From IMG/VR virus record IMGVR_UViG_3300049483_000112, positions 3,464 through 67,463 of that record: a stretch of 64,000 nt of DNA; one strand, 5' to 3'. The notes under the pieces were generated by a model that saw only the letters and a list, made by a program, of their open reading frames with translations, was not told the DNA's origin and ran no database searches. This DNA comes from a virus. This document shows positions 7,070 to 29,567 of the stretch, piece by piece. Position 1 is the first letter of the stretch. Every line of letters starts with the position of its first letter. A program made the translations under genes and the position numbers.

Positions 7070-7512
7070 GGCCACAAACTCCAAAATTGCACAGCGCGGC
7101 GCCCGAGCGGTTCGTCGCGGTCTCGCGAGATGATGACGCCGCGGCCGACATATGCATGCAGCAGCAGCAGCCCGGCGTGATCATCTGCCGCGATGATGAT
7201 GGCGCCATGGGAGAAGCAGCGGCCGAACCGGTAGAGCGCCATGTCGCCAAGGCGGCCTTGATCGACTTTGTGAGCGTACTTCTGGACCCACCCGAGAAAG
7301 CGCTCCTCCTCACGGTGCATGTGCCAGTCTGGCGGATAGGGCCCGGTATCGATCGGCGGGATCAATCCGCACCCTGAATACACCCCAATGAGCAGTTGTG
7401 CGCAGTCAACGCCAGCGCCTTTGATGCGCGCGCCGTGATGAAAGGGGGTCTTCAGCCACGAGAGCGCCTCACTCTGCACCGCCAGCCGCTGTGCCGTCTC
7501 CTCGGTCATCAT
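7066..7512 (-). CDS. Tail-associated NlpC/P60 peptidase
   Basis: WLKTPFHHGARIKGAGVDCAQL, FSHGAII and LLHA catalytic C/H/H motifs. Confidence 0.9.
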   Translation of the reverse strand: MMTEETAQRLAVQSEALSWLKTPFHHGARIKGAGVDCAQLLIGVYSGCGLIPPIDTGPYPPDWHMHREEERFLGWVQKYAHKVDQGRLGDMALYRFGRCFSHGAIIIAADDHAGLLLLHAYVGRGVIISRDRDEPLGRRAVQFWSLWP

Positions 7513-15638: not shown

Positions 15639-17156
15639 TTAGCCGTTGGCGATGTTGCGGATCACCGCCAGGGCGAACGTGGCATACACCTGCAGCACGC
15701 CGTCTTGGTAGACGCCGTACTCGTATTTGCGGGTGCGCAGCGGCCATTCGATCTGGTAGTAGTCCCGGCGCATCCGCATCTGCATCACGTTCGTGACGTT
15801 GCTCAGCGGGTAGGGCAGTCGCTGCGTGGTGAACAGGATCGTGCCAGGCGGCATGTTCGGATGTAGGCGCACCCTCAACTCTTGCGCGCTGTCCATCGAG
15901 AACTTGTTCAGGTACGACTTCACCATGATGCCGCCGCCGACCATGCCCTGATCAGCATTGAAGACGAAGCGCTGTGCCGCGGACTGGCCACCCTGCAAGA
16001 TCTTCGCGCCGATGCTGTTCATCTCCTGGCTCGAAACCCACATCGTGTCGGGGCTCAGCCGGTAGTTGTCCCACATCGACTTCAGCACTGCATCGATCTG
16101 CACGACGCCGCCGGAGCCGTCAGCCGTCAGCGCGGTGCCGGTGCCCGCCGTGCCGTTGGCCATCGTCACCTGCGTTGCGCCCAGGCTTGACTGCATCGCC
16201 ATCGTCAGGATGCCGTCGAACGCCAGCGAGTTCCGCGACTTTTCGGCCGCAGTGAGCGCATTGAAGTTCGATTGCCCAGGCGACACCGTCGTCCCGGCAG
16301 CCGCGTCGGTGATCAACACCGAGTTGATGGTTGTGATAGCGCCCAGCGTCAGGTTGCCGGCCGCCGCACCCCAGAACCACGCGTATGCGACCGCACCGTC
16401 CACCGCCGCCACCGTGGCAGAGATGACCGACGTGTTGGAGCTCGCGGCAGTCGTCACGTTGGCTTGCGGGCTCGGGTACGCGCTGCCGCCGTTGATGGTG
16501 TCGGTCGACGAGTCGGCGTTCGTGCGCACGTAGGATTGCACGATGCCGCCGGTCAGCGACGCCAGCATGTACCCTTCGAACGTGAGAGCGACGCAGCCGA
16601 CACCGTAGGACGCGTTGCCAGTCAGGGTCCCGCCGGCATTGGCAGACGACAGGGTCGGCGTTGGCGTGTTGGCCAGCGCGTACTGCGTGTTGCCGCCGAG
16701 GATGACCTTCTCTTCGTTGATCATCATCGCGCGCAGCAGCCCCTCGACGGCCAGCGCCTTGACATCCTCGAAACCTTCGCCGGCGTAGTCGGCCTCGAAG
16801 GTCACGTTGTCTTCAAGGCCCATGCCCTTGTAGGCAGCCGTGTAGTCTTGGGTCGAGGTCGTGATCACCGCGCCACGATTGCCTTGGCTCACGAAGCCGT
16901 TGACTTTCGTGGTGTTCACGCCGGTGACGGCGCGCCAGTTCGCCTGGATGCCACCCTTGCCGCTGACACGAGGGATCTCGTTGCGCAGCGGCGTGATGAC
17001 CGGGTAGAGCTTCTTGGACGGGGCCTCGAGGTCGTAGGCGGTGATGCCGCTGACCGCTGAGCCGCTTTGCGTCCACGACTTTGCCAGTTCCGAGTCCGGC
17101 ATGCCCTGCGCCGCCTTGACGAGCGCGAGGGTTTCCGCAGTGGTTTGTGCGTTCAT
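15639..17156 (-). CDS. Major capsid protein with Ser/Thr/Gly-rich insertion
   Basis: YDLEAPSKKLYPVITPLRNEIPRV, LHPNMPPG, YEYGVY; downstream of protease, followed by terminator. Confidence 0.88.
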   Translation of the reverse strand: MNAQTTAETLALVKAAQGMPDSELAKSWTQSGSAVSGITAYDLEAPSKKLYPVITPLRNEIPRVSGKGGIQANWRAVTGVNTTKVNGFVSQGNRGAVITTSTQDYTAAYKGMGLEDNVTFEADYAGEGFEDVKALAVEGLLRAMMINEEKVILGGNTQYALANTPTPTLSSANAGGTLTGNASYGVGCVALTFEGYMLASLTGGIVQSYVRTNADSSTDTINGGSAYPSPQANVTTAASSNTSVISATVAAVDGAVAYAWFWGAAAGNLTLGAITTINSVLITDAAAGTTVSPGQSNFNALTAAEKSRNSLAFDGILTMAMQSSLGATQVTMANGTAGTGTALTADGSGGVVQIDAVLKSMWDNYRLSPDTMWVSSQEMNSIGAKILQGGQSAAQRFVFNADQGMVGGGIMVKSYLNKFSMDSAQELRVRLHPNMPPGTILFTTQRLPYPLSNVTNVMQMRMRRDYYQIEWPLRTRKYEYGVYQDGVLQVYATFALAVIRNIANG

Positions 17157-17193: not shown

Positions 17194-18321
17194 TCACTTG
17201 CGGAGCGGCTGAGTTACTGTCAGCGGCGCACCGCCATATCGGTGGAGGTTCTTGATGAGCCCTGCGGCCTCGTGCGGATCACCACGGTCGTCGATGATCG
17301 GCTCGGCTTTGTTGAGTTTCGACGCTTCGGTGTCACCACCACCCAAATCGTCGGCCTTTGAAATTGCGCGGAGCATCACGCGCGGCGTCGCCGGCTGTGC
17401 TTCGAGTTTGATGATCTTCGCTGTCGCGTCCTCGAGCGCCTTTTGCAATGGCGCGAGCGCGTCGGCGACGATCTTCTGAAGGGCGGCCTCGTCGAGCTTG
17501 GCAACCGGAGCGTCGACCTTTTCGACCTTCTCGGCTTTCTTGGCCTCATCGGCGCACTCGTCGCCATCTGGCTCGGCCTCTTTGTCCTCTTCATCGGCAG
17601 CCTTGGCATCAGCGGCAGCCTTGGCATCTTCAGCCGCTTTTGCGTCCTTCTTGGACGGCGGCCACGCCTTGATCATCTCGATCACTGCGCCGATGTTCAG
17701 GCCGGCGTCGTTCATCGTCTTGCCCAACAGGGCGACCTCGTCTGCCGTGCCCTCGACCGTCACATCGTCGGGGTCCACATCCTCGACCTTCTCTGCATCA
17801 GCCTCGGGCTGATTCTTGAAGTCGACCTTCTCGACAGCGCCGTCGGCCTTTTGCACTTCGAAGAACTTCGCGCTCGGGATGCACGGCCGATCGACCAGCG
17901 AGATCTCGGTTGGCTTCGCCGTGTAGCGCGTCACGTCTTTGCCATCGGACTTCTCGACAGTCTTCGGGCCGACGTACGACCCGCCGATGGAAAAGCCGGT
18001 GTAGCAGCCCTCGTTGACCTTCTTCCACTCCTGATCGTCCACGATCTTGGCGACCACATCGATCGCCTTGTCGGCGTCATTGAAGTCGATCTGCGTCAGT
18101 TTGCCGGCGGACACCTTGCCGTGCATGGCGCGCACATTGCCCATGCTCTTGCCGCCGGTGTCCTTCGCGATCTCTGCCGACCAGGCCTCGAAGTGTGGCT
18201 TGCTCGACAGATAGTCCATCACCTCGTCCGACTTGTCGACCATCTCTTGCGCCGCCCGACCGAAGACGAGCCGCTTCTCTTCATCGACCTTGGTGATCTG
18301 CGCGAAGATGTTCATCGACAT
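17194..18321 (-). CDS. Prohead protease (XkdF/HK97-like) with scaffold-like C-terminus
   Basis: ITKVDEEKRLVFG, RAMHG, YTGFSIGG, EISLVDRP; charged Ala/Glu/Lys tail. Confidence 0.85.
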   Translation of the reverse strand: MSMNIFAQITKVDEEKRLVFGRAAQEMVDKSDEVMDYLSSKPHFEAWSAEIAKDTGGKSMGNVRAMHGKVSAGKLTQIDFNDADKAIDVVAKIVDDQEWKKVNEGCYTGFSIGGSYVGPKTVEKSDGKDVTRYTAKPTEISLVDRPCIPSAKFFEVQKADGAVEKVDFKNQPEADAEKVEDVDPDDVTVEGTADEVALLGKTMNDAGLNIGAVIEMIKAWPPSKKDAKAAEDAKAAADAKAADEEDKEAEPDGDECADEAKKAEKVEKVDAPVAKLDEAALQKIVADALAPLQKALEDATAKIIKLEAQPATPRVMLRAISKADDLGGGDTEASKLNKAEPIIDDRGDPHEAAGLIKNLHRYGGAPLTVTQPLRK

Positions 18322-18397: not shown

Positions 18398-21300
18398 CTA
18401 CAGGCGCAGCGCCAGGCGCCGCTTCAGGCTCGTCTCGCGCCGCTTTTTCTTCTTCTTGCCCGTGTTGCCGTAAGCCGTGAGCCCGCTGGTCGCGCTTGCC
18501 GATTGCACGAATTCCTTGCGCAGCCCGACGCCGCCTGTGAGCTCAGCGACGGTGCGGCTGACGATCGCTGCCACCTCGTCTGGCGTCAACTCCCCTGCTT
18601 CGCCGACTTGTTGATCCCCTTTACCAAGCCTTGTGCGGCCTGGCGCATGAACGCTTCCATTGAGCCCCCGCCCGTCCACGGAAGCATTTTTCGCTGGGGC
18701 GTCCCCTTTGAATCCGCGGTAGATGGAGTCGGAGATTTTTCCTGCTTCGTGCTGCTGTTCGAGTGCGTCATAGAGCTTCCTTTCCATGTCCTGTTGCGAT
18801 GTGATAGTCCACTTGTCGAGCGACGCTTCTTTCGCGTTCCCGCGCCCGAGGCTATTGTCGACTGCGCGGACCCAGACGTTGCCCGAGCCGTTGTACTTTG
18901 CATAGAGCGCGCGCACGGTTGGCAGTGCGCCGGCGTGCGTCTTGGCGTGCTCTGTGATCGGGACCGTGCGCCCAGTGCCGAACTCTCTTTCCTGCCCTGC
19001 CGCCCGCGGCAGCGCCCCGTTCACGAGGGCGTCGACAGGATCTCGGTGGACATAGAGGATGCCGACCTGGCGGCCCGAGTCCAGCGCCTGCATCACCTTC
19101 TTCTCTGCGCTGCCGAGCGTGTTCATGTTGGTGTCGTAGATGATGTTGGCCCTGGACACCATGTCAGCAAACTCGGGCAACTTCATGCCGGACGACTTAC
19201 CCGCGCCGGTGCCGCCAGCGGTGAAGAGCACGACCGGGTGCATGCCGCCGGGCACCGGCTCAGCCAGCATGCGCGCGTACAACTCCTTGATGAATAGGCT
19301 GGCCGGCTCATGGACGGCAGCGCTTTGCGTGCGGTCGGCGAGATAGTCTGGCGACAACTCGCGCGCGATGTCGGTGTTCAGCACTCGTCCGCCGAGCCCT
19401 GGCGAGTCCTTCTCGGCGAGCGCGTGGTACTCGGCAATCGCCGCCGTGAACGCCTTCTCGTTCGTCACCTTGAACTCGTGCTCCCCCTTGCTGTTGGTGC
19501 CGGTCATCGTCATTCCGAGCTTCTGCGCCAACGCAAACTCGATGGCCGACTGCTTGGCCGTGAGCGTAGATTGCCCTTCAGCCCTGGCAACCACAGCGGC
19601 GCGCGTGCCTTCAGAAGCGCTGGCGCCACCGCCGGCGTCCGTCCACATGCCATGTGCGTCGCGCGGCTGATCAGGATCGAACCCCTTCAACAGCGCGGAC
19701 AGATTCGTTTTCATGACGCCTCCCTTGTCATCGATGCCGAGGCGCATGCGAATCACCGAGCCGAGCATGCGCAATGACTCGACCTCGTCGTTCGTCGGCT
19801 CGCGCGGCGGGCCAATATCGAAGCCGAGCAGTTCGTTGATGTTGATGAACTTTCCGACCTTGCCTTCCACCCAATCTGCGAAGCGTCGCGCGCCGTCGCT
19901 CGAACTCTTTGGCGTCGACTTCGCGCCAAGGTGCGTGTACAGGTTCTGCTCGTGAAACCACAGGCCCGCCTGAACTTGTGACGCCTTCAGGCCGGTCCTC
20001 GATGCCACCTCGTTGATCAGCGCCTTTGATGCGCGCCGCATAGGAGCGGTCGGGCCGCTGATGGCGACCATCTTCCCGTTCTTGTCCTTCACCGAGGCCT
20101 GCTTGAAGTACCTCGCGAACGTGCGCGTCATCCACTTGTCGACAACCGGGTCTTCAATCCCGTGCATGTTGCTGATGAAGGGCCCGATCTTTGGCCCGAA
20201 GATGCTCAGCCCGAGTTGTTTCTGGTTCTGCGTCTTCAAGACGAGCTTGCCCTTGCTGCCGAGCAAATCCTTTTCTGCTTCGTGCAACTCTTTGTTCGTG
20301 TGATCGGAGTAAAGCCAGGCCACCGCGCCCGCCTCGCCGAATCTCTCGACAAGCGTGTTCAGCGCGCCCATCCCCTTGGCGACGTATTCGCCGCGGATGG
20401 TCCACAGGCCAACCTTGCCAGTAAAGCCTGGCTCTCCTTGCGGGTTGTACGGTGGCAGCCGCCCAGTGCGTTCGTACTCTCGAAATATCTTCGCGCCCGT
20501 GTTCCAACTGATCATCGGGTCGGTCCCGTTCGCCGTGATGCCGGCCACGACACCGAACAACTGTTGCTTCACCGGTTCCGACAGCGACGGGATGTATTTT
20601 TGCGTGATCTCCATCGCGGTCTTGATGTCGTCGGTGTACCAACGCTTGAAGTCGCCCTTGCCAGTTACCTCTTCGCGCAGCAATTGGTACTTGATCTCCT
20701 CTGTGGCGGTCTGCACTGCATGCTCGAAATTCTTGGCGACTTGTTCCTTCACCTGAAGCGGATCTTTGGGGCTCGCCTCATACGCGACCGGCCCGCCTTC
20801 GCTGAACATGGCAGCGATCTGGTCAACAGACATGCGCTTGCCCTCGTGCGCCGCGCTGTTGCGAATGTTGATCGCGCTGAACTTGCCGGCCATGCCGCTC
20901 GGACCGCCCTCATCTGTCCATCGGCCGAGCTCGTCCCGCTGCTGATCCTCGCGAAACTTTTCGAGCTTCTCGGCGCGCGCACGCCGCAGCCGTGGTGTGC
21001 ACGCTAGCGCTCCGAAGTCGTCGGCCTCTTCGTCGATCTTGCCCAGGCCGGCGCGCACCTTGCGGTAGTCCTTCTCCATGATGGTCAACTCGTTTCTCAT
21101 CGTCTTGCGCTGCGTCGGATCAGGCACGTAGCCGTGGCGTCGATAGAACTCCTCGGCCTTGGGCATCGCAGACAGAAAGACACCCACGCCCTTTGAGGCG
21201 GCCACTTGCTCGACCTCTTTCAACAGGCGCGACCCTTCGCCTTCTTTCAGCGAAAAGAGGTAGTCAACCTCGATGTCGTGTTCGCGCCCAGGCTGCGCTG

Positions 21301-23011
21301 GCGTGTACTGCACGCCGCTGACGATCCGTCCGTTCTCGACGACGAGCTTGTGCTGCGTACCTGCGTCGATGTCCTTTTGCCTATACAGCAGGATCGATTC
21401 CATCAGCCAGTAGGCCGCCTTCTCTTTCGGTGACGCGCCGCGCTCAAGCGCCTCTGCCTGCTGCGCAGAGTACATGTCAATCAGCACATTGCGGTTGCGC
21501 GATGTGACCGGCGTGTCGCCACTCGGTAGCGGCTCGCCATGATGTTCAGTTGAGCCGAGCAGCGTCTCGACAATCGCGTTGCCGCCTTCGTTTGTCCAGC
21601 GCCCATGATCATCGCGGGGCTGTGCGTCGTCGTACTTCGCGACCTGGCCGACCCATAGGTCGTCAGCGATCAACCCCGCCTTGACGGCGTGACGGTACAC
21701 GGGCAGCGTCTTGAAGTGTGCAAGGTTGCGCACCAGACGCATGAACTCTGGCGACTTGTATGGCGGCAGATCCCACGCGGTCTTTGTCCAGTCTGCATCC
21801 GCCTGGTCGGCATCAACGTCGATCGTTTGGTCTGTCTTGCTGAGCGCCTTGCCCATGGCCTCGTCTCTCAACTTGACCTCTGCCTGCGCGTACACGGGCC
21901 ACGGCCTGTCCCATCGGCCGCCAACCGCGTTTGGCGACAGCATGATCGCGTCAGTCTTTCCGCCAAGCACGACGAACTCGGACTCGCTCAGGCACCCGAA
22001 CCCTGTCCTCGGTGTCGACAGGATTCTCGATGCGGGCATCTTCACCAAAAGCACGTTCCCGTAGCCGCCTGCAAAGTCTGCCGCCATGTCCGCGTGCGCC
22101 GAAAACGACGACATCGGGTTCATGGTCACTTTGTAGTAGCCAGGCGGCGCTGGGGATCCTCTTGTTGCAACGATCCCGCGCATCAGCGTCACCTCTTTGA
22201 GCCCGGCTTTCGCAAGATCTGCCTGCGTCTGGCTGTACATCTCGCGCAGGAATGCGCGCGTGCCGGCAATTGCGATCTCCGGTGACGCCGTGATGCGCAT
22301 GTGATCCATCGCCTCTTGAGCCAGCCCGGTTGGGGATATGGGCAACTCTGGGTTCGCCACAGCCGCCGTGTCGCGCACACCCCGCAGGCCGAACTCCTGC
22401 TTCACCATCTCTTGCAGGAAAAGCGACCGCGGGTCGTGATCTGCCGATGTCACAGCCCATGACGACACAAATTGTCGAATGGCATCCTCGCTACGGAGGT
22501 GCAGTTGCTGCTGATCCGCCGGCCCAAGAAACAGGCCCGGCGCAGACTGCATCGGCATTGCAGCCATCAGCGCGCGCCAGTCTGCGTTCTTGACGAGCTC
22601 GTCCTTCAGTCGCAACTGAGATAGCTCTTTTGCTTCTTCGCCCGTCCTGACTCCAGGCCAAGCCGTATAGGCCTCTGCGTCGGCCATGCTCTGCTCTACA
22701 GGACTCCACCCGCCCAGTGCCTCGCTCGGCTTGAAGTCGCTTTGCTCGAATCGAATCGATGCTGCATGCGGCGTGCCGGCGGCCGGATCCGCAGCGCCAG
22801 TCATCTGCTCATCTGACCATCGACCGCGCTCGTCGCGCGCTTGGTTCGGGTCGTACTTGAGCAGTGCGCCGAGATCGATCTTGCCCGTGTAGCCCGAGGC
22901 GTAGATCGCCGTCGCCTGCCGCTCAGCCTGCGCGCGCGTCGGGTAGCACTTCTGATTGCCCCATTGCCAGCCTTGCTCGCCGTTGGGGAGGGTGCAACGT
23001 TGGATCGGCAT
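18398..23011 (-). CDS. Polyvalent head-associated protein: ART + GNAT + HhH/glycosylase-like + zeta-toxin-like kinase
   Basis: VTLMRG..MSSFS..ESEFVVLG (R-S-E ART); LKEGEGSRLL..AEEFYRRHGY (GNAT); GPKIGPF..VVDKWMTR..QVQAGLW; FTAGGTGAGKSS..IYDTN (zeta-like P-loop). Confidence 0.75.
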   Translation of the reverse strand: MPIQRCTLPNGEQGWQWGNQKCYPTRAQAERQATAIYASGYTGKIDLGALLKYDPNQARDERGRWSDEQMTGAADPAAGTPHAASIRFEQSDFKPSEALGGWSPVEQSMADAEAYTAWPGVRTGEEAKELSQLRLKDELVKNADWRALMAAMPMQSAPGLFLGPADQQQLHLRSEDAIRQFVSSWAVTSADHDPRSLFLQEMVKQEFGLRGVRDTAAVANPELPISPTGLAQEAMDHMRITASPEIAIAGTRAFLREMYSQTQADLAKAGLKEVTLMRGIVATRGSPAPPGYYKVTMNPMSSFSAHADMAADFAGGYGNVLLVKMPASRILSTPRTGFGCLSESEFVVLGGKTDAIMLSPNAVGGRWDRPWPVYAQAEVKLRDEAMGKALSKTDQTIDVDADQADADWTKTAWDLPPYKSPEFMRLVRNLAHFKTLPVYRHAVKAGLIADDLWVGQVAKYDDAQPRDDHGRWTNEGGNAIVETLLGSTEHHGEPLPSGDTPVTSRNRNVLIDMYSAQQAEALERGASPKEKAAYWLMESILLYRQKDIDAGTQHKLVVENGRIVSGVQYTPAQPGREHDIEVDYLFSLKEGEGSRLLKEVEQVAASKGVGVFLSAMPKAEEFYRRHGYVPDPTQRKTMRNELTIMEKDYRKVRAGLGKIDEEADDFGALACTPRLRRARAEKLEKFREDQQRDELGRWTDEGGPSGMAGKFSAINIRNSAAHEGKRMSVDQIAAMFSEGGPVAYEASPKDPLQVKEQVAKNFEHAVQTATEEIKYQLLREEVTGKGDFKRWYTDDIKTAMEITQKYIPSLSEPVKQQLFGVVAGITANGTDPMISWNTGAKIFREYERTGRLPPYNPQGEPGFTGKVGLWTIRGEYVAKGMGALNTLVERFGEAGAVAWLYSDHTNKELHEAEKDLLGSKGKLVLKTQNQKQLGLSIFGPKIGPFISNMHGIEDPVVDKWMTRTFARYFKQASVKDKNGKMVAISGPTAPMRRASKALINEVASRTGLKASQVQAGLWFHEQNLYTHLGAKSTPKSSSDGARRFADWVEGKVGKFININELLGFDIGPPREPTNDEVESLRMLGSVIRMRLGIDDKGGVMKTNLSALLKGFDPDQPRDAHGMWTDAGGGASASEGTRAAVVARAEGQSTLTAKQSAIEFALAQKLGMTMTGTNSKGEHEFKVTNEKAFTAAIAEYHALAEKDSPGLGGRVLNTDIARELSPDYLADRTQSAAVHEPASLFIKELYARMLAEPVPGGMHPVVLFTAGGTGAGKSSGMKLPEFADMVSRANIIYDTNMNTLGSAEKKVMQALDSGRQVGILYVHRDPVDALVNGALPRAAGQEREFGTGRTVPITEHAKTHAGALPTVRALYAKYNGSGNVWVRAVDNSLGRGNAKEASLDKWTITSQQDMERKLYDALEQQHEAGKISDSIYRGFKGDAPAKNASVDGRGLNGSVHAPGRTRLGKGDQQVGEAGELTPDEVAAIVSRTVAELTGGVGLRKEFVQSASATSGLTAYGNTGKKKKKRRETSLKRRLALRL

Positions 23012-23014
23012 CGG

Positions 23015-24808
23015 TCACTCCTCGGTGTCCGCATTGTCCGCGCCCCAGTCCTCCTTGCGGAGCACCGGCAAAACGTCGCAGTTGTGCGCAATAATGCCGC
23101 TAGCGCAATACCACCCGTCAACAGTCTGGAAGTTGTAGACATGACCCTCAAAAAATCTCCGCCCAATGCTGACCACCTTGTCGCTGAATATCGCAGCGGG
23201 AAGAGTCTTTTGCAGATCATCCGTCAAACCGGCTGGCCTAGAAACCGCACCTACATGCTTGCGCGCACCTTGGGCATCATTGATCCGCAAAGAAGGATTG
23301 AACGGTGCCGAAGTCCTGAAGTGCGAGCTTTGCATAGCGAACAAACGAGCGGATGGTGGCGTAACGCAATCCCAAGCCAGCGCGCGGCGCAGGTCAAGGC
23401 TGCGCATGCAGCCCCCAACAAGCGCGCCAAGGATTGGTGGCAAGGAAAGAACGCCACACAGCGCGTCAAGCACCTTGCCAAGACGTGGGCGGGGTTTGCG
23501 CATGAGCGTGAGTTCGTGCGCTTTTGCTCCGATGCCGGAGTGTTGGTGAAGCGGTGCTTCCGCATTGGAAAGTACAGGCCTGATTTTCGCATTGATGACA
23601 CACGCCTTCTTGTCGAGGTCTGCGGTAACTATGCCCCCGGCGATAGATACAGAACCGTCCGCCGCGAGCGCATTGAATATCTCCTCCGCTCTGGATGGTC
23701 GATCCTGTTTGTCCTTATAAGGCCAGGGGATCGCGTCGGCCTCGCTGCTGCTGATCACACTATCACCTTGATGGAGTCGATCCGCGGCGACGAACCCGTT
23801 GTCGGTCAGTATTGGGTGATCAGGGGTAACGGTGAGTTCGTTTCCGCTGGCGGTCCTGATGACGACGACTTCCCCTTCGTATAGGCTCCTTGTCGCTGCT
23901 CGCACCTCTGGCCCCCAGACAATAGTGCTAGGCGCCAGACAAAGACAGTTCGGGTGCGCTGGCGGGAAGTCGATCCCCGTGTCGCCGAAGTCGTCCTCAA
24001 GGTCCACAACGCCAGCCTCTGCGGCGTCGTCGCACTCATCAGGCTCTGGATGCGTGTCGGCAAGGATCCATCGCTTGCCCTCGACCTCGCCTGTTGCGCG
24101 CCAACCCTCGACGTTGCCCTGCACGTGCGCGAACGCGAGCTCTGTGCGCGCGATCATGTCAGCGCGCGCGGGCCCGAATGCGCCCAACTCTTCGATTGCG
24201 CTCGACAGGTCATCGGCGCTCATGCCTTCTTCGACGGCGCGACTCAACAGGCCACGCACCGCCTCGTCTGTCGTGTCGGCGTAGTCCTTCATGAGCTCGC
24301 CGCCGCGGTTGGCCGCGTAGAAGACGGCCTCGGCGTCGACTTGATGCACCATCGCTTCAGTAGCGGCGAAGCCTACTTGCTCGAGCCCGGCGCGGCCGGC
24401 CGTCTGATATGCGTCGAGGATCTCGGGGCGCAGGATGCGAATGATCTCCTCGGCCAGGTCGTCGTAGTTGGCGCGAAGGATCTTCATCACTGCGGCGACG
24501 ACATCATCGTCACTTGCCTTGGCGAGCTTTTGCGCGCGCGATCCGTAGGCGGCCGCAGCCTTCGCCGCGATGGCCACGCGGTGCCGACGCAGCGCCTTGC
24601 CGATCCGGCTCGCCACCCTGCCTTCCCGGCGCGCGACGAATCTGCCCACAGCGGTTGTGTGCGGCCGCAGGCGCCCCTTGGCGAGTTGATAGGCCGACTC
24701 CTCCTCTGCCTTCGCCAATTCGAGCGCGCGCGCGATGCCAGGCATGCTGCAGCCGCATGGTGTCCTGACGAAGACAGACCGATTCCCCACCGTGCAACAT
24801 CCTTTCAA
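23015..24808 (-). CDS. MuF / SPP1 gp7-like head morphogenesis protein with intein (start may be downstream, e.g. 24745)
   Basis: RADMIARTELAFA, KRW, ECD, PPAHPNCL-[intein]-CDVLPV. Confidence 0.9.
   Translation of the reverse strand: MKGCCTVGNRSVFVRTPCGCSMPGIARALELAKAEEESAYQLAKGRLRPHTTAVGRFVARREGRVASRIGKALRRHRVAIAAKAAAAYGSRAQKLAKASDDDVVAAVMKILRANYDDLAEEIIRILRPEILDAYQTAGRAGLEQVGFAATEAMVHQVDAEAVFYAANRGGELMKDYADTTDEAVRGLLSRAVEEGMSADDLSSAIEELGAFGPARADMIARTELAFAHVQGNVEGWRATGEVEGKRWILADTHPEPDECDDAAEAGVVDLEDDFGDTGIDFPPAHPNCLCLAPSTIVWGPEVRAATRSLYEGEVVVIRTASGNELTVTPDHPILTDNGFVAADRLHQGDSVISSSEADAIPWPYKDKQDRPSRAEEIFNALAADGSVSIAGGIVTADLDKKACVINAKIRPVLSNAEAPLHQHSGIGAKAHELTLMRKPRPRLGKVLDALCGVLSLPPILGALVGGCMRSLDLRRALAWDCVTPPSARLFAMQSSHFRTSAPFNPSLRINDAQGARKHVGAVSRPAGLTDDLQKTLPAAIFSDKVVSIGRRFFEGHVYNFQTVDGWYCASGIIAHNCDVLPVLRKEDWGADNADTEE
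23081..23941 (-). mobile_element. Intein (287 aa) in MuF
   Basis: Block A CLAPST, block B LTVTPDHPILT, block F GHVYNFQT, terminal AHN with +1 Cys. Excision restores HPNCLC. Confidence 0.9.
23141..23884 (+). CDS. HTH + DUF559/Vsr-like PD-(D/E)xK endonuclease nested antisense inside the intein
   Basis: 247 aa from ATG 23141: EYRSGKSLLQIIRQTGW (HTH-like); HEREF..FRIGKYRPDF..LLVEVCG..ERIEYLLRSGWSILFV. Confidence 0.8.
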   Translation: MTLKKSPPNADHLVAEYRSGKSLLQIIRQTGWPRNRTYMLARTLGIIDPQRRIERCRSPEVRALHSEQTSGWWRNAIPSQRAAQVKAAHAAPNKRAKDWWQGKNATQRVKHLAKTWAGFAHEREFVRFCSDAGVLVKRCFRIGKYRPDFRIDDTRLLVEVCGNYAPGDRYRTVRRERIEYLLRSGWSILFVLIRPGDRVGLAAADHTITLMESIRGDEPVVGQYWVIRGNGEFVSAGGPDDDDFPFV

Positions 24809-24940: not shown

Positions 24941-27900
24941 TCACGCGTACATCGCCACCATCTCGATGAAGTCCGCCAGGTCAGGATCGTATAGGGTTGT
25001 GTTGGCCGCAGGCGCCAGCCCGAGCGCCGTCATCGACCCCGTAGGCACGCTGATGACGATCGGCTGCTGCCGCACTGGCGGCCTGATCGGCAGCCTGACG
25101 CGGTGCGCAATCAGCCGAGGGACGATCTGCTCTTCCGCTGGGCGAATGTCGCTGACGATGATGCTCGGGGCGAACCCGGCGAATGCACCATGGCCAGTTT
25201 CAACGCCGATCGGAACGTCGACAGGCTTGGGCCGATAGGTGCGATCGACGATGAAGTCTGGGCGTCGGTTGCCGCGGCCCCAGCCCACGCCGTCCAGGGT
25301 TGGCGGCAATGCCGGCGCAGGCGCTTCTGCAACTTCTTCTTCGCCAGGGACCAGCCCAACAATCGTCATCGACCCCGTGGGCACCTCGATGACGTGATGC
25401 TCGGTGCGCGCGACCGTCGGCGCAAAGCCCGTGAACTGCCCGGTGCCGGTGCCAGGCGTCGCGGTGATGAACTCGCTGATCAGGATCGACGGCGCTAGGC
25501 CTGCGAATGCGCCCGTGCCGGTGTCCGGTTTCACCCCCTGCCCGAGCAGCACCGATGGAGGAAGACCGACGAACGCACCAGACCCAGTCGCAACGCCGGC
25601 GATGACGTGCTCGGTACGCGAGATCGTCGGCTCGAGGCCCGTGAATACGCCAGACCCGAACCCAGGCTGCGCCGTCTTGCCTAGCGCACTGTTGAGCACC
25701 CCAGGGGCGAACCCGCCGAATGCGCCGGCCCCAGTCGGTACCGCAATAATCTGGCCGATCAGGATAGACGGGGCGAGCCCAATGAATGCGCCCGTGCCCG
25801 CGGGCGGAGTGGCCGAGATCAGGTCGCTGACCAGCGCCGTCGGCGCCAAGCCGCTGAACGCGCCAGTGCCAACCGGGACCGGCAAGTTGGTGTTCGTCGC
25901 ACTGCTGACCGAGATCGTTGGCGCCAGGCCTTCGAACGCGCCGCTGCCTACGCCAGGCGCTGCGCTGCGCAGATCCGAAACCGCAATCGATGGAACAAGC
26001 CCGGTGAACGCCCCGGTGCCAAGGCCCGGCCGCGCCAACAGGCCGACAGTGATGATCGGGGCGAACCCAACGAAGGCACCCGAGCCGGCGCCAGGCTGCG
26101 CGATGACATTGAGCAGGGTGCTTGGGGCAATCCCAACGAATGCCCCGCTGCCGGTGGCTGGCTGATAAGTTGACCCGCGCAGAGCAATCGGCAGCAGCCC
26201 GGTGAACGCCCCCGCCCCGACGCCTGGCGTCGCCACCACCCCAGTGAGCAGCGTTGGCGCAAGCCCCGCCGCGGTCAACGAACCAACCCCTGGCCGGAAT
26301 ACATAGCCGGTGATCGCAGCGGGCGCAAAGCCCGACGCAGACAGCGTGCCGGGCCCAGGCTGCGCGATCTTGAGGTCGCTGATGGTTGCGGTAGGGGCAA
26401 GCCCTGCAAACGCTCCTGTGCCCGTTCCTGGCTGCGCGAATGCGCCAACTACGAACGTCGGCGCTAGGCCAGCGAATGCGCCGCTGCCGGCCGGCGGCTG
26501 CGCGATCGCGTTTGTCAGGATCGAAGGCGCAAGTCCGGCGAATGCGCCGGTCCCAGCCCCCGGCTGAGCGACAGTCCCGCGCAGGATGGCCGGCGCGAGT
26601 CCAGCGAATAGGCCGGTCCCGGCGCCAGGCTGCGCAACAGTGCCAACGACCAGAGTCGGAGTAAGACCGGCGAACACCCCTGTGCCGGCACCGGGCTGGA
26701 TGATCGAGTTGATCAGCAGCGACGGGGCGAACCCTGCGAACACGCCAGCGCCGGCAGGCACGGCATAGATCGCACTCGTCAGCAGCGTCGGTGCCAGCCC
26801 TGCGAACACTCCGTTGCCTGTGCCGGGCTGCACGTAGGACTGGATCAGGAGCGACGGCGCGAGCCCGACGAAAGCCCCGTTGCCTGTGCCGGGCTGCTTG
26901 ATCTCTCCGCGCAGCGCCGTCGGAGCAAGGCCTGCGAAAACGCCCGTGCCAGCGCCGGGCTGCGCATACATCTGCACGAACAGCGCTGGCGCAAGCCCGG
27001 CAAATACCCCTGTCCCTGCGCCAGGCTGCGTGATCGTCCCGGCGACAACCGTCGGCGCTGCGCCAGCGAATACCCCGTTGCCCGTGCCGGGCTGTGTGAT
27101 GGTGCCGCGGAGCGCTACCGGTGTTGAGCCAGCGAATACCCCGTTGCCGGTGCCGGGCTGCGCGACTGTTCCGATGATCAGCGTGGGCGCCAACCCAGCG
27201 AACACGCCATTGCCAAGACCGGGCTGCTCTACCTCGCCGCGCACCAATGTCGGCGCAAGGCCCGCGAACACACCGTTACCGGCTCCCGGCTGTTCGACCT
27301 CACCCCTTACCAAAGTCGGCGCGAGCCCCGCGAATACGCCATTGCCCGTACCGGGTTGATCGACTTCGCCGCGCACAAGCGTCGGCGCGATACCGCTGAA
27401 TACGCCATTGCCGGTGCCAGGCTGCTCGACCTCGCCGCGCAGCAGCGTCGGAGCGAGCCCAGCGAAGACGCCGTTGCCCGTGCCTGGCTGTTCGACCTCA
27501 CCACGAAGCAGCGTCGGTGCGAAGCCGCCGAAGACGCCGTTGCCGGCGCCAGGCTGAGTGATGGTGCCGCGCAGCACCGTTGGGGCAAGGCCAGCAAACA
27601 CGCCATTGCCTGTTCCCGGTTGCTCGTACATCTGCTGGAATGCGATCGGCGCCAGTCCAGTGAATGCGCCGGTGCCGTAGCTCGGGCTTGCTGTGACGTT
27701 TGCAGTGACGCCAGCCACCGGGATGGCGAACTGCGTCCACGAGACAAACCAGCCCGTCGACTTCGTCGCCGTCGGAGCGAGCCCGGTTGCGACCGCCGAC
27801 CCAACTGGTACCGCAATCGTCTTGTCTTGCGCGAACGAAACCCACATCTCGCAGCCGTCGCGGCTGCCGCTGAATGTCGGGTTGTAAATCTGCGTCGCAG

Positions 27901-28507
27901 TTGCGCTCACCACCTTGCGCTGGGTGATGATCTGCATGCCGGAGGTGGTCACGCCAACGCCGGCCTTCAGCCCCGCTGACCATGAGCCGTTGGACGTGTC
28001 CGAGTCGTCGGTCGCGGTGTCGTTGCCCTCCCGGCCCATCGCGCCGATCACCATCGTCCCGTTTGTTAGGGACGAGGTTGTGATCGACGGGACGTTCGAT
28101 GTGGCCGTTTCTTGCGCGCCAGTGACGTAGACGACCGAGTAGCCGGCCTCTGGCGTTACTTCATGCAGCGCCCACGCCTTCGCGACTGCGTTGGCGCTGA
28201 TCGTCATGGTGATCGTGTTCGCCGTCGTCAGCGTGCCGACCGCCATGTTGCAGGTGAACGCGCGCATCGCCGCGCCGGCGTTCGCTGCGCCAGGGTCGAT
28301 CAACGAGTTGACGCGCGAAACCCAGGTGTTCCCTACCGAGTCAGTGATCGACGAGTAGGGGTCGGCCCCGTTCGTGCCGCTGTTGTCGTATGCGCAGAAC
28401 AGAACAGCCAGCGAGCCTGCGCTGAAGTTGGACCCAGGCGTGACGACGAGCGTCGTGCTCGACGAGTTGTGTGTGCCTGAACCTCGATCTGCGCCGCTGA
28501 TTGCCAC
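24941..28507 (-). CDS. Long virion fibre-like protein with ~36 tandem 22-aa repeats
   Basis: GTG start with GGAG RBS; N-terminal beta domain, then QPGTGNGVFAGLAPTLLRGEVE-type repeats. Confidence 0.8.
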   Translation of the reverse strand: MAISGADRGSGTHNSSSTTLVVTPGSNFSAGSLAVLFCAYDNSGTNGADPYSSITDSVGNTWVSRVNSLIDPGAANAGAAMRAFTCNMAVGTLTTANTITMTISANAVAKAWALHEVTPEAGYSVVYVTGAQETATSNVPSITTSSLTNGTMVIGAMGREGNDTATDDSDTSNGSWSAGLKAGVGVTTSGMQIITQRKVVSATATQIYNPTFSGSRDGCEMWVSFAQDKTIAVPVGSAVATGLAPTATKSTGWFVSWTQFAIPVAGVTANVTASPSYGTGAFTGLAPIAFQQMYEQPGTGNGVFAGLAPTVLRGTITQPGAGNGVFGGFAPTLLRGEVEQPGTGNGVFAGLAPTLLRGEVEQPGTGNGVFSGIAPTLVRGEVDQPGTGNGVFAGLAPTLVRGEVEQPGAGNGVFAGLAPTLVRGEVEQPGLGNGVFAGLAPTLIIGTVAQPGTGNGVFAGSTPVALRGTITQPGTGNGVFAGAAPTVVAGTITQPGAGTGVFAGLAPALFVQMYAQPGAGTGVFAGLAPTALRGEIKQPGTGNGAFVGLAPSLLIQSYVQPGTGNGVFAGLAPTLLTSAIYAVPAGAGVFAGFAPSLLINSIIQPGAGTGVFAGLTPTLVVGTVAQPGAGTGLFAGLAPAILRGTVAQPGAGTGAFAGLAPSILTNAIAQPPAGSGAFAGLAPTFVVGAFAQPGTGTGAFAGLAPTATISDLKIAQPGPGTLSASGFAPAAITGYVFRPGVGSLTAAGLAPTLLTGVVATPGVGAGAFTGLLPIALRGSTYQPATGSGAFVGIAPSTLLNVIAQPGAGSGAFVGFAPIITVGLLARPGLGTGAFTGLVPSIAVSDLRSAAPGVGSGAFEGLAPTISVSSATNTNLPVPVGTGAFSGLAPTALVSDLISATPPAGTGAFIGLAPSILIGQIIAVPTGAGAFGGFAPGVLNSALGKTAQPGFGSGVFTGLEPTISRTEHVIAGVATGSGAFVGLPPSVLLGQGVKPDTGTGAFAGLAPSILISEFITATPGTGTGQFTGFAPTVARTEHHVIEVPTGSMTIVGLVPGEEEVAEAPAPALPPTLDGVGWGRGNRRPDFIVDRTYRPKPVDVPIGVETGHGAFAGFAPSIIVSDIRPAEEQIVPRLIAHRVRLPIRPPVRQQPIVISVPTGSMTALGLAPAANTTLYDPDLADFIEMVAMYA
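25345..27815 (-). repeat. Degenerate 66-bp coding tandem repeat
   Basis: About 36 units counted in the translation; most similar at ~26800-27620. Confidence 0.9.
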
Positions 28508-28541: not shown

Positions 28542-29567
28542 TCATGTCACCGCCGTGAATTCGACTGACAGGTTGCCATAGTTCGTGATCGAGTCGGCCT
28601 GCGACGCGTTCAGCGTGCGCTCAACAAGAGTGAAGGTCGCACCGACCGCTTCGTTCCACGACGCTATTGTCGTATTCGCATCCTGCACCAGCCGCACCGT
28701 GTGATTGCCCTGCAGGACGTAGCTCAACACATGGTTGCTCGAGGACAGCGGGTCATTGCCAGACGACAGGGCGACCTTGAATGTGCTCGGCGTCGTGCCG
28801 GGCAACTTCGCATAGTCCGAGTCGTCGCGCGTCGTCTCGTCGAGCATCGCGTAGATCGAGTTTCCAGTGCTCGCTGTCCAATTCCCAGCGCTAAGGTCAC
28901 TCGCCGGGCGCAGCGTCTGCCCCGCCGCCCCCTGCTTGAGCAGGACAATGCTCGCTGAGATGTAGTAGTTGCCGCTCGTCCCGTTTGCGTTGTAGTTCCC
29001 CGTCGAGGTGAACTCGCGACGCATCACGAAGAGGTCTTCGCCAGCAAGCGTGTTCCCGTGATGCCCCGCCGTGATGTTGGCGCCCGTTAGCGCCGACCAC
29101 CCGGCTGCCGGCACGAAGGCGCCGTTCGCGTTTGACGTTTCAACTGCGATGCCGAACCCGACTGTGTTCGCCTGACTCGTCGTTGGTGCATTGCCAGAGT
29201 CCCAAGATGTTGTCGGCCCAGAGGGCCCTGGCGCCGCATACTTGTCAACGCAACTTGACGTAACGACGCCGCTCTCTTCGATGCCGAAAATGCACGTGTC
29301 CTGTGCCGTACTGATGTTCGCCGTGATCCATGTGACGCCGGCCTGGCTGTTGGGGCACACCCACATTGCAGATGCCTCGACTGCATCGTTTGGTGTGAAT
29401 GCGCTGACGTAGCTTTGCCCCGCGCTGTCAGAGACGCCTGTGACATATCTGCCGTTGCGGCCGACGATCGCGATCAGACACGACCCCTGCGCAGACGCAG
29501 AGATGTTCACCGAAACAGTGTTTGCGCCGTACCCGTTATCGTTGGCAACCGCTTGAACGAGGGACAT
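28542..29567 (-). CDS. Virion decoration/fibre-associated beta protein
   Basis: S/T/G/N-rich; VTGVSDSAGQSY resembles SSITDSVGNTW in the neighbouring protein. Confidence 0.65.
   Translation of the reverse strand: MSLVQAVANDNGYGANTVSVNISASAQGSCLIAIVGRNGRYVTGVSDSAGQSYVSAFTPNDAVEASAMWVCPNSQAGVTWITANISTAQDTCIFGIEESGVVTSSCVDKYAAPGPSGPTTSWDSGNAPTTSQANTVGFGIAVETSNANGAFVPAAGWSALTGANITAGHHGNTLAGEDLFVMRREFTSTGNYNANGTSGNYYISASIVLLKQGAAGQTLRPASDLSAGNWTASTGNSIYAMLDETTRDDSDYAKLPGTTPSTFKVALSSGNDPLSSSNHVLSYVLQGNHTVRLVQDANTTIASWNEAVGATFTLVERTLNASQADSITNYGNLSVEFTAVT

Follow-up and report, generated by a model that had tools for sequence, protein, structure and literature searches.

[quoted passage not shown] The virus record IMGVR_UViG_3300049483_000112 (whole genome 67,463 bp) encodes among its head genes a long polyprotein, P0001, in which one short peptide recurs ahead of different modules. 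What is this peptide for? We analysed positions 3,464 to 67,463 of the record (64,000 nt, here called the window, to which all coordinates refer). Our preferred answer, to which we assign a probability of roughly 0.55, is that the gene encodes a virion-cargo 'polyvalent' protein with a lineage-specific head-protease site and a universal tag at its junctions.

A polyprotein with a tag ahead of four modules

The gene of P0001 is an open reading frame of 1537 aa on the minus strand (18398-23011). As had been predicted, it lies between the genes of a MuF head protein (23015-24808, minus; Phage_Mu_F 31.6 bits) and of a prohead protease that continues into a scaffold-like coiled region (17194-18321, minus). 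The major capsid protein gene comes next (15639-17156, minus; phrog_13692, E 1e-132), while the genes of the terminase and of the portal protein (34971-36695, minus; Phage_portal and phrog_2662), which is untagged in this phage, are upstream. The protease matched PHROG head maturation protease families at E 5e-22 and 4e-11; it scored 19.3 bits with Pfam S78_2, under the cutoff of 24, and H67 and S111, the putative His/Ser pair of an HK97/S78-like serine protease, were invariant in 14 homologues. Thus the polyprotein gene has the location among late or packaging genes that characterises polyvalent proteins in the main text of Iyer et al. (2017, PMC5512222).

The MuF frame ends with TGA, and the ATG of the polyprotein follows one codon downstream in the same frame. 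The two are separate ORFs here, so that the N-terminal MuF fusion typical of MuF-type toxins is absent; elsewhere MuF was fused to tagged modules in 7 of 31 tagged proteins. The MuF gene also contains an intein (23081-23941; Intein_splicing 32.2 bits, TIGR01445 26.3 bits) that interrupts its HPNC-x-C motif. In the window there was neither a free ORF between the polyprotein and protease genes nor an immunity-like ORF adjoining the polyprotein.

The original prediction had placed four motifs in the gene, and all four are there to the nucleotide, on the minus strand. They share K-[YF]-x3-Q-x-R-D-x2-G-x-W-[ST]. Tag 1 (aa 52-66, 22814-22858) reads LLK followed by KYDPNQARDERGRWS, tag 2 (aa 459-473, 21593-21637) VAK followed by KYDDAQPRDDHGRWT, tag 3 (aa 685-699, 20915-20959) LEK followed by KFREDQQRDELGRWT, and tag 4, with one extra Gly (aa 1109-1124, 19640-19687), LLK followed by KGFDPDQPRDAHGMWT. 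Scanning all six frames of the window with a regex, we obtained five matches, all in real minus-strand genes; the fifth (36938-36964) belongs to a tag at 36935-36979 in a 118-aa ORF, where FEK is followed by YSEDQPRDERGRWT. With a tag HMM trained on 515 copies from other proteins, tags 1 to 5 scored 36.3, 37.2, 32.2, 38.5 and 49.6 bits in a six-frame search of the 67,463-bp genome. The next best match in the genome reached 5.5 bits, and there was no sixth copy. Because the five copies differ at synonymous sites, it is the peptide that is conserved and not a DNA repeat; a DNA-level repeat or recombination handle was thus ruled out as the cause of the conservation. In the AlphaFold model the tags had pLDDT values below 50 and were not docked on the neighbouring module.

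P0001 consists of five modules, four of them enzyme-like, and a C-terminal tail. The small N-terminal module (aa 1-45, 22877-23011, minus) matched phrog_31267 at E 2.9e-5, and its domain occurs as a standalone gene of 72 or 74 aa adjoining tagged genes in two related loci (L021 and L026). Module A (21647-22813, minus) is ADP-ribosyltransferase-like (R-S-ExE): R212, S236 and E277-x-E279 were invariant in 12 aligned sequences, Pfam DRAT scored 19.8 bits, under its cutoff of 25, and the top VIA-align rows for the model were mostly ART folds, if weak ones (Z 4-6). Module B (20969-21592, minus) is GNAT acetyltransferase-like, with a marginal Acetyltransf_1 match of 22.0 bits against a cutoff of 20.7 when scanned alone; Acetyltransf_10 and Acetyltransf_7 stayed under their cutoffs. 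Module D (18527-19639, minus) is a zeta-toxin-type P-loop kinase: PF06414 matched at E 2.1e-10 and 40.8 bits against a cutoff of 22.3, and the Walker A motif GGTGAGKS is present, which places it in the zeta family. Nearly all of the 74 homologues of P0001 (itself, P0009 and P0080 counted) are multidomain proteins with a zeta toxin.

Module C (19697-20914, minus) was assigned to DUF7178 with an HhH-GPD DNA-glycosylase-like fold from Atlas, Foldseek and VIA-align results. The nearest Atlas clusters were DUF7178 (score 0.95); the Pfam profile itself (PF23802, cutoff 27) gave 12.7 bits with module C and 28.8 bits with the homologous region of P0009. VIA-align superimposed the model on MjOgg (3knt_A) with Z 11.1 and an rmsd of 3.8 over 194 of 207 residues, a comparison to be read with the caution that Z below 13 between helical proteins may mean a mere common arrangement. 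All 50 VIA-align matches listed belonged to the HhH-GPD superfamily, and the best Foldseek rows were Ogg2, AGOG and DUF2419; no Pfam HhH-GPD match was found. FGPK265 and D282 were invariant in the alignment, and from the geometry of EndoIII (HhH Lys, Asp about 17-20 residues on) we take them to be the putative catalytic residues. Foldseek with the models of modules A and C returned nothing at E<=1e-3, and a PDB sequence search with both gave no match under E 0.3. As far as computation reaches (Pfam, the conserved triad and fold matches), the predicted ART, GNAT, HhH/glycosylase-like and zeta-like modules stand behind their tags. The chain thus unites at least two unrelated effector domains (Zeta_toxin, GNAT, ART-like and HhH-GPD-like), a further mark of polyvalent proteins.

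The tag in other proteins

We searched 1.84 billion representative proteins with a profile built from the five copies. Matches numbered 2927 at E<=1e-3, of which 576 reached E<=1e-10 and 52 reached E<=1e-30. We examined 151 proteins by regex, the top 148 profile matches together with P0001, P0009 and P0080. The search found 521 copies in 147 proteins, with a median spacing of 248 aa and a maximum of 10 per protein. The tag is an unstructured peptide of 15 to 16 residues with the consensus [YF]-[DS]-x-x-Q-[PA]-R-D-x-x-G-R-W-[TS], behind which comes a Gly-rich segment. The first tag stood within 40 aa of the protein start in 52 of the 147 proteins, and at least about 165 aa lay beyond the last tag in 95% of them. 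Thus the tag is a header rather than a trailer.

The tag did not fall within any of 38 tabulated Pfam domain matches, which came from 26 of 31 sampled tag-rich proteins and from P0001, P0009 and P0080. P0009, the closest homologue, carries four tags at its module borders in a module order unlike that of P0001. A check fixed beforehand, whether the motif coincides with domain borders in homologues, was therefore passed. About 2,900 protein clusters have the tag at the borders of their modules. The 31 of the 148 proteins that were scanned have these domains between their tags: MuF, portal, zeta, GNAT, ARTs, DUF7178, InPase, NUDIX, LigT, nucleotidyltransferase, TopoI and LPD1; many modules behind tags belong to no known family. 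Four proteins have a tag 31-57 aa behind a MuF domain. The scan of the 31 proteins revealed no peptidase domain, so that any cleavage would need a protease acting in trans.

In 78 viral loci we counted 151 tagged ORFs, always on one strand and often adjacent, and 62 of these loci have a recognised head gene. Among the portal-family ORFs of related loci, 21 of 69 have a tag directly behind the portal domain; for the protease domain a tag follows in 9 of 57 ORFs. MuF is probably no obligatory partner, and we rejected this idea: of 25 viral loci with a length of at least 18 kb our own MuF profile matched only 10, and of 32 genome loci with at least 12 kb it matched 0. Clustering of neighbouring ORFs yielded no universal partner family, merely one giant single-linkage cluster held together by multidomain proteins. 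A tblastn search of 50,697 phage records with the polyprotein hit six records with a single module each, and the three of these that were inspected (Octadecabacter phage BD1, Bacillus phage HSE3 and a Manatee Spring siphovirus) are tagless; the search found no tagged cultured phage with proteomics. Candidate tagged prophages in cultured environmental strains are those of Rhodoblastus acidophilus DSM 137 (L122), Nitrospirillum amazonense (L093 and L107) and Caulobacter sp. S45 (L109).

Junction residues, capsid site and C-terminal tail

The triplets LLK, VAK, LEK and LLK precede the four tags, and ELAK is present near the N-termini of both the capsid and MuF proteins, as the original prediction had it. 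The capsid protein has a candidate maturation site L24-A-K26/S27 (17079-17087, minus; the slash denotes the presumed cut). An L-x-K with S, A, N or D as the next residue stood at the aligned position of every one of the 14 sequences whose N-terminus is covered (the window protein and 13 homologues; a 15th homologue, truncated at the N-terminus, was not counted).

Lys preceded the tag in only about 60% of the 521 copies, which speaks against the preferred reading. The tag core is universal, while the residues just upstream are lineage-specific. Within a protein the state of the junction, Lys or not, agreed in 0.895 of pairs versus 0.52 after shuffling, a value that none of 2000 shuffles reached. 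Such uniformity could also reflect common descent or gene conversion and not the specificity of a protease. Lys junctions come in two flavours, h-x-K/[YF] and h-K/A-G-F. Standalone tagged proteins of the 78 viral loci start with MAGFDPNQPRD, MGYDPNQPRD or MLKYSEDQPRD, and a cut in h-K/AGFDPNQPRD would leave the same N-terminus as that of the first type. Taken together, cuts at the two Lys flavours would yield mature N-termini like those of the standalone proteins. Many mature ends would then be Gly-Phe or Ala-Gly-Phe, and for this reason the idea of an N-degron recognised by ClpS, which supposes a cut leaving N-terminal Tyr or Phe, was dropped.

Cleavage by the prohead protease after the Lys had been predicted from these triplets and from the ELAK of capsid and MuF. 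Comparison supports the prediction through the capsid L-x-K, the lineage-specific junctions and the standalone starts, but not through MuF, where ELAK was not conserved in the 7 homologues inspected. A search of viral contigs with P0165 (junction RRA/Y) for covariation with the capsid site returned no locus. Complex prediction for the protease domain (aa 1-195) with a tag segment gave a score of 0.00, 'no answer', which speaks neither for nor against binding. On balance we lean towards the view that the prohead protease cuts after Lys in h-x-K, a motif shared with the capsid protein about 26 residues in. In P0001 the candidate residues are K52, K459, K685 and K1109 at the tags and K1499 in the tail.

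The C-terminal tail (about aa 1497-1522, 18446-18523, minus, with a poly-basic end up to 18401) resembles the capsid N-terminus. It copies the L-x-K site and about 20 residues beyond with a Smith-Waterman score of 58, while shuffled sequences averaged 32 (sd 4.2) and none of 1000 reached the score. The mimicry was seen in only three polyproteins (P0001, P0009 and P0215), and in neighbouring ORFs of 11 other loci the best scores for capsid N-terminus mimicry were 23-38, i.e. at the noise level. The single-module 118-aa tagged protein with the fifth tag is encoded between terminase and portal (36698-37054, minus); its 26-aa leader resembles the capsid propeptide with a score of 34 (shuffle mean 15.5, sd 3.5; 3 of 5000 shuffles reached it).

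These results suggest the following course of events. Five modules and the tail would be synthesised as one chain from the head-assembly operon. The chain would enter the procapsid by its tail, a mimic of the capsid cleavage site and of the start of the N-arm, and perhaps also with the help of MuF or portal; we propose this step tentatively, at somewhat less than even odds. The serine prohead protease would then cut after the Lys of each h-x-K ahead of a tag and free separate modules with the tag as their new N-terminus. Finally, the tag core would serve as a docking peptide in trans, which would keep the modules in the head or let them leave it together with the DNA. A role in packaging or ejection is consistent with the position of the tag N-terminal to every module. 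Yet binding to a fast-evolving head protein hardly accounts for a core that stays invariant while the capsid and portal families differ between phages, and we consider docking a doubtful part of the scheme.

Alternative roles and comparison with known systems

VENN of CdiA is a pre-toxin junction motif of polymorphic toxins. If the tag were a junction of this kind, it would chiefly be a border for the swapping of effectors, with a function inside the target cell (entry, refolding, activation or release, for example), and it would not address the capsid or be cut by the prohead protease. Several loci provide evidence for such a role. A prophage (L127) encodes a 583-aa portal-tag-module protein followed by a 203-aa ORF, an orphan cassette that repeats portal residues 345-496 with 114 of 152 identities; the similarity ends directly after GRWTAT. 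Only the last 80-110 or so portal residues precede the tag in two further loci (L114 and L102). Judged by these alignments, the tag is a recombination breakpoint at which modules have been exchanged over evolutionary time.

Furthermore, 35 of 51 bacterial-genome loci matched none of our lineage-specific portal, protease, capsid, terminase and MuF profiles. A Pfam scan of 96 ORFs from 10 of these 35 detected head genes in one locus only (L097), where a tagged protein has a CdiA-CT RNase-A-like domain. A tagged Tox-REase-5 is followed by an Imm52 gene, a toxin-immunity pair (L080), and two loci (L085 and L087) have tagged proteins with recurrent C-terminal families and a DUF6968 gene downstream; in these three loci immunity-like genes thus adjoin the tagged toxins. 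In the remaining loci of the ten the neighbours were ordinary cell genes. Loci without recognised head genes imply that the tag may work away from a capsid protease. Because the tag is found on toxin-immunity-like chromosomal cassettes and at a recombination breakpoint, a role as pre-toxin junction is equally live.

As the whole explanation, however, a pre-toxin junction is unlikely. Internal copies of the tag, up to 10 in number, occur here and in hundreds of proteins, and it is not confined to the front of a last toxin; the synonymous variation among its copies points to selection on the peptide and not on DNA homology for recombination. The polyprotein has no adjoining immunity-like ORF in the window, and the recognised head genes beside tagged genes in 62 of 78 viral loci likewise argue for the head. 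At the evolutionary level the pre-toxin junction and our preferred cargo reading are compatible.

Packaging and injection as a whole protein has been proposed for giant polyvalent proteins and for the N4 virion RNA polymerase. Similarly, P0001 might be packaged and injected uncleaved, with the tags as inter-domain connectors or internal docking sites. The main text of Iyer et al. (2017, PMC5512222) describes polyvalent proteins as single multidomain polypeptides, and the other 71 of the 74 homologues of P0001 (i.e. without P0009 and P0080), most of them zeta-bearing, are tagless, so that tags are dispensable for building such proteins. On the other hand, standalone proteins that start with the tag show that it is not simply a connector, modules of one kind were found in fusions as well as in tagged genes of their own, and the hydrophobic-x-Lys ahead of the tag matches the conserved capsid site. 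We therefore regard an uncleaved protein as quite improbable. Self-cleavage of the tag by an N-to-O acyl shift at W-[ST] would agree with the residues after W (T 59%, S 16% and A 13% of 521 copies) and is nevertheless very improbable, since Ala and Gly together occupy that position in about 19% of copies and the tag is unstructured in the AlphaFold model; the autoproteolytic sites known to us lie within folded domains.

With a header peptide at the module starts of thousands of phage and prophage proteins, head-packaged cargo could be listed directly. In its widest form, our reading would make the tag a universal portable header for head-loaded, injected proteins, with a lineage-specific cut that frees several effectors from one gene, exchange of cassettes at the tag among portal-, MuF- and protease-anchored polymorphic effectors and, in this phage lineage, loading by a capsid-mimic tail; taken together these claims are rather unlikely to hold throughout. 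If they did, about 2,900 protein clusters would list injected effectors behind their tags, and foreign proteins could be loaded into capsids by means of the tag. The capsid-mimic tail by itself suggests a simple encapsidation route that is possibly usable for the same purpose. Tag and cut would also explain how giant polyvalent proteins become separate enzymes without a peptidase of their own, and the logic of polymorphic toxins, i.e. a conserved junction and orphan cassettes, would extend to portal- and head-protease-fused proteins.

How does the tag compare with known systems? T4 internal proteins IPI-III and Alt share an N-terminal capsid targeting sequence ahead of the site at which the prohead protease gp21 cuts, and the cut takes it off. 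Like this sequence, the tag is a short peptide on unrelated proteins, here presumed head cargo, that is coupled to a prohead-protease site (a candidate site in our case). Unlike it, the tag has its conserved part behind the presumed cut, where the mature module would keep it, and it recurs inside polyproteins. With VENN, as we know it, the tag shares the position of a short conserved peptide where the delivery part ends and the variable module starts, and orphan cassettes keep the tag. It differs from VENN in its unrelated sequence, its many copies per protein, its link to phage heads and the lineage-specific protease-like site ahead of it.

We did not find a description of the tag in the literature searched, PMC9503650 and PMC12991175 included. 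We came across no junction motif in Jamet et al. (2017, PMC5576092) or in the MuF passages of Zhang et al. (2012, PMC3482391); the passages on motifs and junctions that we examined in the main text of Iyer et al. (2017) do not deal with such a tag, while its supplementary alignments could mention the motif. In MuF phage-capsid-type polymorphic toxins a toxin domain is carried on a head protein (Zhang et al. 2012; Jamet et al. 2017). As far as these sources describe them, they have variable C-terminal modules, some with immunity genes, and thus resemble the proteins studied here, where related loci contain orphan cassettes. In contrast, MuF is separate here, a single toxin is replaced by four tagged enzyme modules, and relatives are often anchored to portal or protease and not to MuF. 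The closest likeness in kind is to the polyvalent proteins, unrelated effector domains in one chain that are predicted to be packaged and injected, as set out in the main text of Iyer, Burroughs, Anand, de Souza and Aravind (2017, PMC5512222). P0001 likewise joins ART-like, zeta-type kinase and GNAT-like modules in one chain among head genes, and it is adjacent to MuF, just as polyvalent proteins are often fused or adjacent to MuF or portal. The same text proposes embedded metallopeptidases as processors of polyvalent proteins, whereas no peptidase was detected in the 31 tagged proteins scanned, and their modules carry a header tag.

Tag copies and their place in proteins

The 1537-aa polyprotein (18398-23011, minus strand) carries four copies of a peptide tag of about 15 residues, [YF]-[DS]-x-x-Q-[PA]-R-D-x-x-G-R-W-[TS] followed by a Gly-rich stretch, exactly where the original prediction had placed them. 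A fifth copy is located in an ORF of 118 aa (36698-37054, minus strand). When an HMM trained on 515 tag copies taken from other proteins was run in six frames on the whole genome, the five copies scored 32-50 bits and the next best match 5.5 bits. At the DNA level the copies differ at synonymous positions, thus it is the peptide that is conserved. The tags are preceded by LLK, VAK, LEK and LLK(G) in the polyprotein and by FEK in the 118-aa protein. The latter begins with a 26-residue leader; FEK, the tag and a Gly stretch come next, and then a domain of about 75 aa without known family.

Of 1.84 billion representative proteins, 2927 matched a profile of the five copies at E ≤ 1e-3; 576 of these passed E ≤ 1e-10 and 52 passed E ≤ 1e-30, and as many as 10 tag stretches were matched per protein. 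Examination of 151 proteins (148 newly listed plus the polyprotein P0001 and its homologues P0009 and P0080) by regular expression gave 521 copies in 147 proteins with the consensus [VLI]-x-K(60%)-[YF](95%)-[SDN]-[PED]-[DNS]-Q-[PA]-R-D-[ED]-x-G-[RK]-[WF]-[TSA]-x-G-G-G. The median spacing was 248 aa; the first tag was at most 40 aa from the protein start in 52 of the 147, and in 95% of them at least about 165 aa followed the last tag. Pfam analysis of 31 of the 148 tagged proteins (every third, within a size limit) identified MuF in seven and Portal_Mu together with MuF in one, as well as zeta, GNAT, two ART families, DUF7178, InPase, NUDIX, LigT, cytidylyltransferase, TopoI, a PI3K-like match and LPD1; no peptidase domain was identified in these 31. 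The expected coincidence of motif and domain boundaries in homologues was borne out, with no tag inside any of 38 tabulated Pfam domain matches. In four proteins the tag followed a MuF domain by 31-57 residues. P0009, the closest homologue (39% identical residues over 66% of the query), carries its four tags at module borders and has a different module order and the same C-terminal tail as the polyprotein; P0080 has four tags and a flavin oxidoreductase as the last module. The other 71 homologues of the polyprotein, mostly zeta-bearing multidomain proteins, lack the tag, which thus marks one large subset of polyvalent proteins, not all.

A scan of viral contigs yielded 78 loci with 151 tagged ORFs, all on the strand of the first match, and several tagged genes often lie next to one another (six in loci L036 and L039, five in L079, four small ones in L077). 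Standalone proteins have the tag at their very start, where L071 and, four times, L077 read MAGFDPNQPRD, L064 reads MGYDPNQPRD and L042 reads MLKYSEDQPRD. Using profiles iterated from the window's proteins, we found a tag 20-70 residues past the portal domain in 21 of 69 portal-family ORFs and a tag in 9 of 57 protease-domain ORFs. The tag is a module header; the original observation holds, and it extends far beyond the single gene in which it was first noted.

The locus and the modules of the polyprotein

The window comprises most of one contig of 67,463 bp, the minus strand of which carries a phage late operon. The terminase gene (37179-38771) is followed by the 118-aa tagged ORF, the portal gene (34971-36695), a methyltransferase/MptE-like gene and an HNH endonuclease gene. 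Three large ORFs of 1188, 341 and 769 aa (24941-28507, 28542-29567 and 29572-31881, minus strand) lie between portal and MuF (23015-24808); they had no PHROG match and no tag, and none had a Pfam match except the 769-aa ORF, which weakly matched a polysaccharide lyase. The polyprotein gene is located between MuF and the protease/scaffold gene (17194-18321), and the major capsid gene (15639-17156) precedes adaptor, tape-measure and tail genes, all on the minus strand.

The MuF gene contains an intein-like insert of about 287 aa (23081-23941, minus strand), which scored 26.3 bits with TIGR01445, above the cutoff, and 32.2 with Pfam Intein_splicing, below the cutoff of 35.8. Its first residue is the Cys directly after H-P-N-C-L and it ends with H-N before a Cys, so splicing would rebuild the conserved HPNC-x-C motif of MuF. 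The MuF stop is TGA followed by C, and the polyprotein ATG comes one codon (CCG) later in the same frame (23009-23017, minus strand). Read-through of TGA would yield a MuF-polyprotein fusion as is directly encoded in other phages; the shared frame could also be due to chance, the odds being one in three.

The labels proposed for the four modules (ART, GNAT, HhH/glycosylase-like and zeta-like kinase) hold as far as computation reaches. Residues 1-45 form a small domain, phrog_31267, which in two other loci is a standalone gene of 72 or 74 aa adjoining tagged genes. In module A (residues 67-455) R212, S236 and E277-x-E279 are invariant in 12 aligned sequences, and a Pfam DRAT match remained under the cutoff. 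Foldseek gave no match at E ≤ 1e-3 for module A. The best VIA-align rows of its AlphaFold model (mean pLDDT 64.5) were mostly ADP-ribosyltransferases with Z of 4-6 (CNFy domains 4-5 6.1, C2-I 5.6, PARP16 5.3). There is moderate support for reading module A as ART-like. Module B had a marginal GNAT match, and PF06414 (E 2e-10) identifies module D as a zeta-type kinase.

Module C groups with DUF7178, and the model built for it (mean pLDDT 65.9) matched HhH-GPD glycosylases, with a Z of 11.1 and an rmsd of 3.8 over 194 of 207 residues for MjOgg, and all 50 structural rows listed were Ogg, AGOG, EndoIII, MutY or the queuine-salvage enzyme DUF2419. An invariant F-G-P-K is followed by an invariant Asp 17 residues on, candidate counterparts of the helix-hairpin-helix Lys and the catalytic Asp of bifunctional glycosylases. 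DUF7178 seems to be a glycosylase-like domain of the HhH-GPD type that phages carry in internal proteins. A stretch homologous to module C is also present in the 2987-aa gp16 of the cultured Octadecabacter phage BD1 (L001), which is annotated as lysin and has no tags.

A candidate protease site and capsid mimicry

The original prediction had the prohead protease cutting after the Lys before each tag and pointed to similar sites near the capsid and MuF N-termini. In an alignment of the window's capsid protein with 15 homologues, one of them N-terminally truncated, L-x-K with S, A, N or D as the next residue was found at the aligned position in 14 of 14 rows covering the N-terminus, the window's own row among them. 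It is located 26-35 residues from the start, just ahead of a conserved SG[IL]T-x-YDLE segment, and reads L-A-K26/S27 in the window (slash, candidate cut). The corresponding ELAK close to the MuF N-terminus was not conserved in seven MuF homologues inspected. In the neighbouring protease H67 and S111 are invariant in 14 sequences, and a protease homologue in L050 carries ALAK-YSPDQPRD directly behind the protease domain.

The core of the tag is universal and the residues just before its aromatic residue are protein-specific, e.g. RRA/Y five times in P0165, KAG/[FY] five times in P0101, G-x-P-E/[YF] in P0189 and P0218 and x-N-A/F in P0142 and P0190. In a set of 114 proteins that each have at least three tags (459 tags), 0.895 of the pairs within a protein agreed in having Lys or not, compared with 0.52 after shuffling (0 of 2000 shuffles reached the observed value), an agreement that kinship of copies within a protein could inflate. 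Lys junctions come in two flavours, h-x-K/[YF] and h-K/A-G-F, where h is hydrophobic. A cut after Lys in the second would leave AGFDPNQPRD, the same N-terminus that the standalone MAGFDPNQPRD proteins would have after loss of the initiator Met. A cut by the protease is plausible, and the support for it is comparative.

The polyprotein tail L-R-K-EFVQSASATSGLTAYGNTGKKKK (residues ~1497-1522; 18446-18523, minus strand) aligned with capsid residues 24-49, L-A-K-SWTQSGSAVSGITAYDLEAPSKK (17010-17087, minus strand). The Smith-Waterman score was 58, while shuffles had a mean of 32 (sd 4.2) and none of 1000 reached it. The tails of P0009 and P0215, a further polyprotein, scored 46 and 66 against the capsid, and in both the same tail comes after a different last module. 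Thus the tail copies the candidate capsid cleavage site and the start of the mature N-arm (~20 residues); a poly-basic stretch closes it in the polyprotein. In the 118-aa protein the 26-residue leader resembles the capsid propeptide, with a score of 34 (shuffles 15.5, sd 3.5; 3 of 5000 reached it). Tail and leader would use whatever binds the capsid N-terminus in assembly, e.g. the scaffold region encoded by the protease gene. Such mimicry was not found in 11 other loci and may be a lineage-specific device.

Cassette borders, the role of the tag core and known systems

A scan of one bacterial genome per species with a stricter pattern from the window's copies yielded 51 loci, nearly all in Alphaproteobacteria (including Afipia, Stellaceae, Nitrospirillum, Azospirillum, Methylocapsa, Caulobacter and Rhodoblastus), plus one in a Solirubrobacteraceae MAG and one in an Armatimonadetes MAG; because pattern and ranking favour relatives of the window, this spread is not the true taxonomic range of the tag. 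Many of the tagged proteins have 100-500 aa and consist of leader, Lys, tag and variable end. No match to portal, protease, capsid, terminase or MuF profiles was obtained in 35 of the 51 loci, and Pfam was run on 96 ORFs from 10 of these. L080 has a tagged protein with Tox-REase-5 (258-1826) and an Imm52 gene downstream (1844-2587). In L097 a tagged CdiA-CT RNase-A-like protein (832-1563) directly follows a Phage_capsid gene. In L085 and L087 a DUF6968 gene, possibly for an immunity protein, is downstream of a recurrent Cys-containing C-terminal family. In the remaining Pfam-scanned loci the neighbours were ordinary cell genes.

The leaders of tagged ORFs contain a protease domain in L084, L118 and L125, and in L102, L114 and L127 they are copies of just the last ~80-110 residues of a portal. 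L127 encodes a 583-aa portal-tag-module protein (4600-6351) and downstream a 203-aa orphan ORF (6887-7498). The two share 114 of 152 residues over the last ~150 residues of the portal and the tag, and the similarity stops right after GRWTAT. This arrangement is like the orphan cassettes of polymorphic toxin systems, the tag standing where those have their pre-toxin junction. By sequence, L127 and also L114 and L102 look like polymorphic-toxin cassette exchange at the portal C-terminus.

The tag may act in packaging or ejection, as originally proposed. When module C was modelled together with the tags on either side, these had a pLDDT <50 and were not packed on the module, with just a lone bridge across R-D-x-x-G-R-W; the modelled lack of structure and packing fits a peptide acting in trans. 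We give a probability of about 35% to docking of the tag core for head retention or co-ejection; the main rival is that the tag acts in the target cell. That Q, R, D, G and W of the core hardly vary between phages with unlike capsid and portal families speaks against a partner among fast-evolving head proteins, and a net charge of about zero would argue against simple DNA binding.

No description of the motif was found in the main texts of the papers searched. The nearest concepts are polyvalent proteins (PMC5512222) and MuF-capsid polymorphic toxins (PMC3482391, PMC5576092), together with the capsid-targeting sequence of T4. Fusions of effector domains to MuF, portal and capsid-processing peptidase are already published (PMC9503650), in a paper whose relevant passages do not mention a common tag at the fusion joint.
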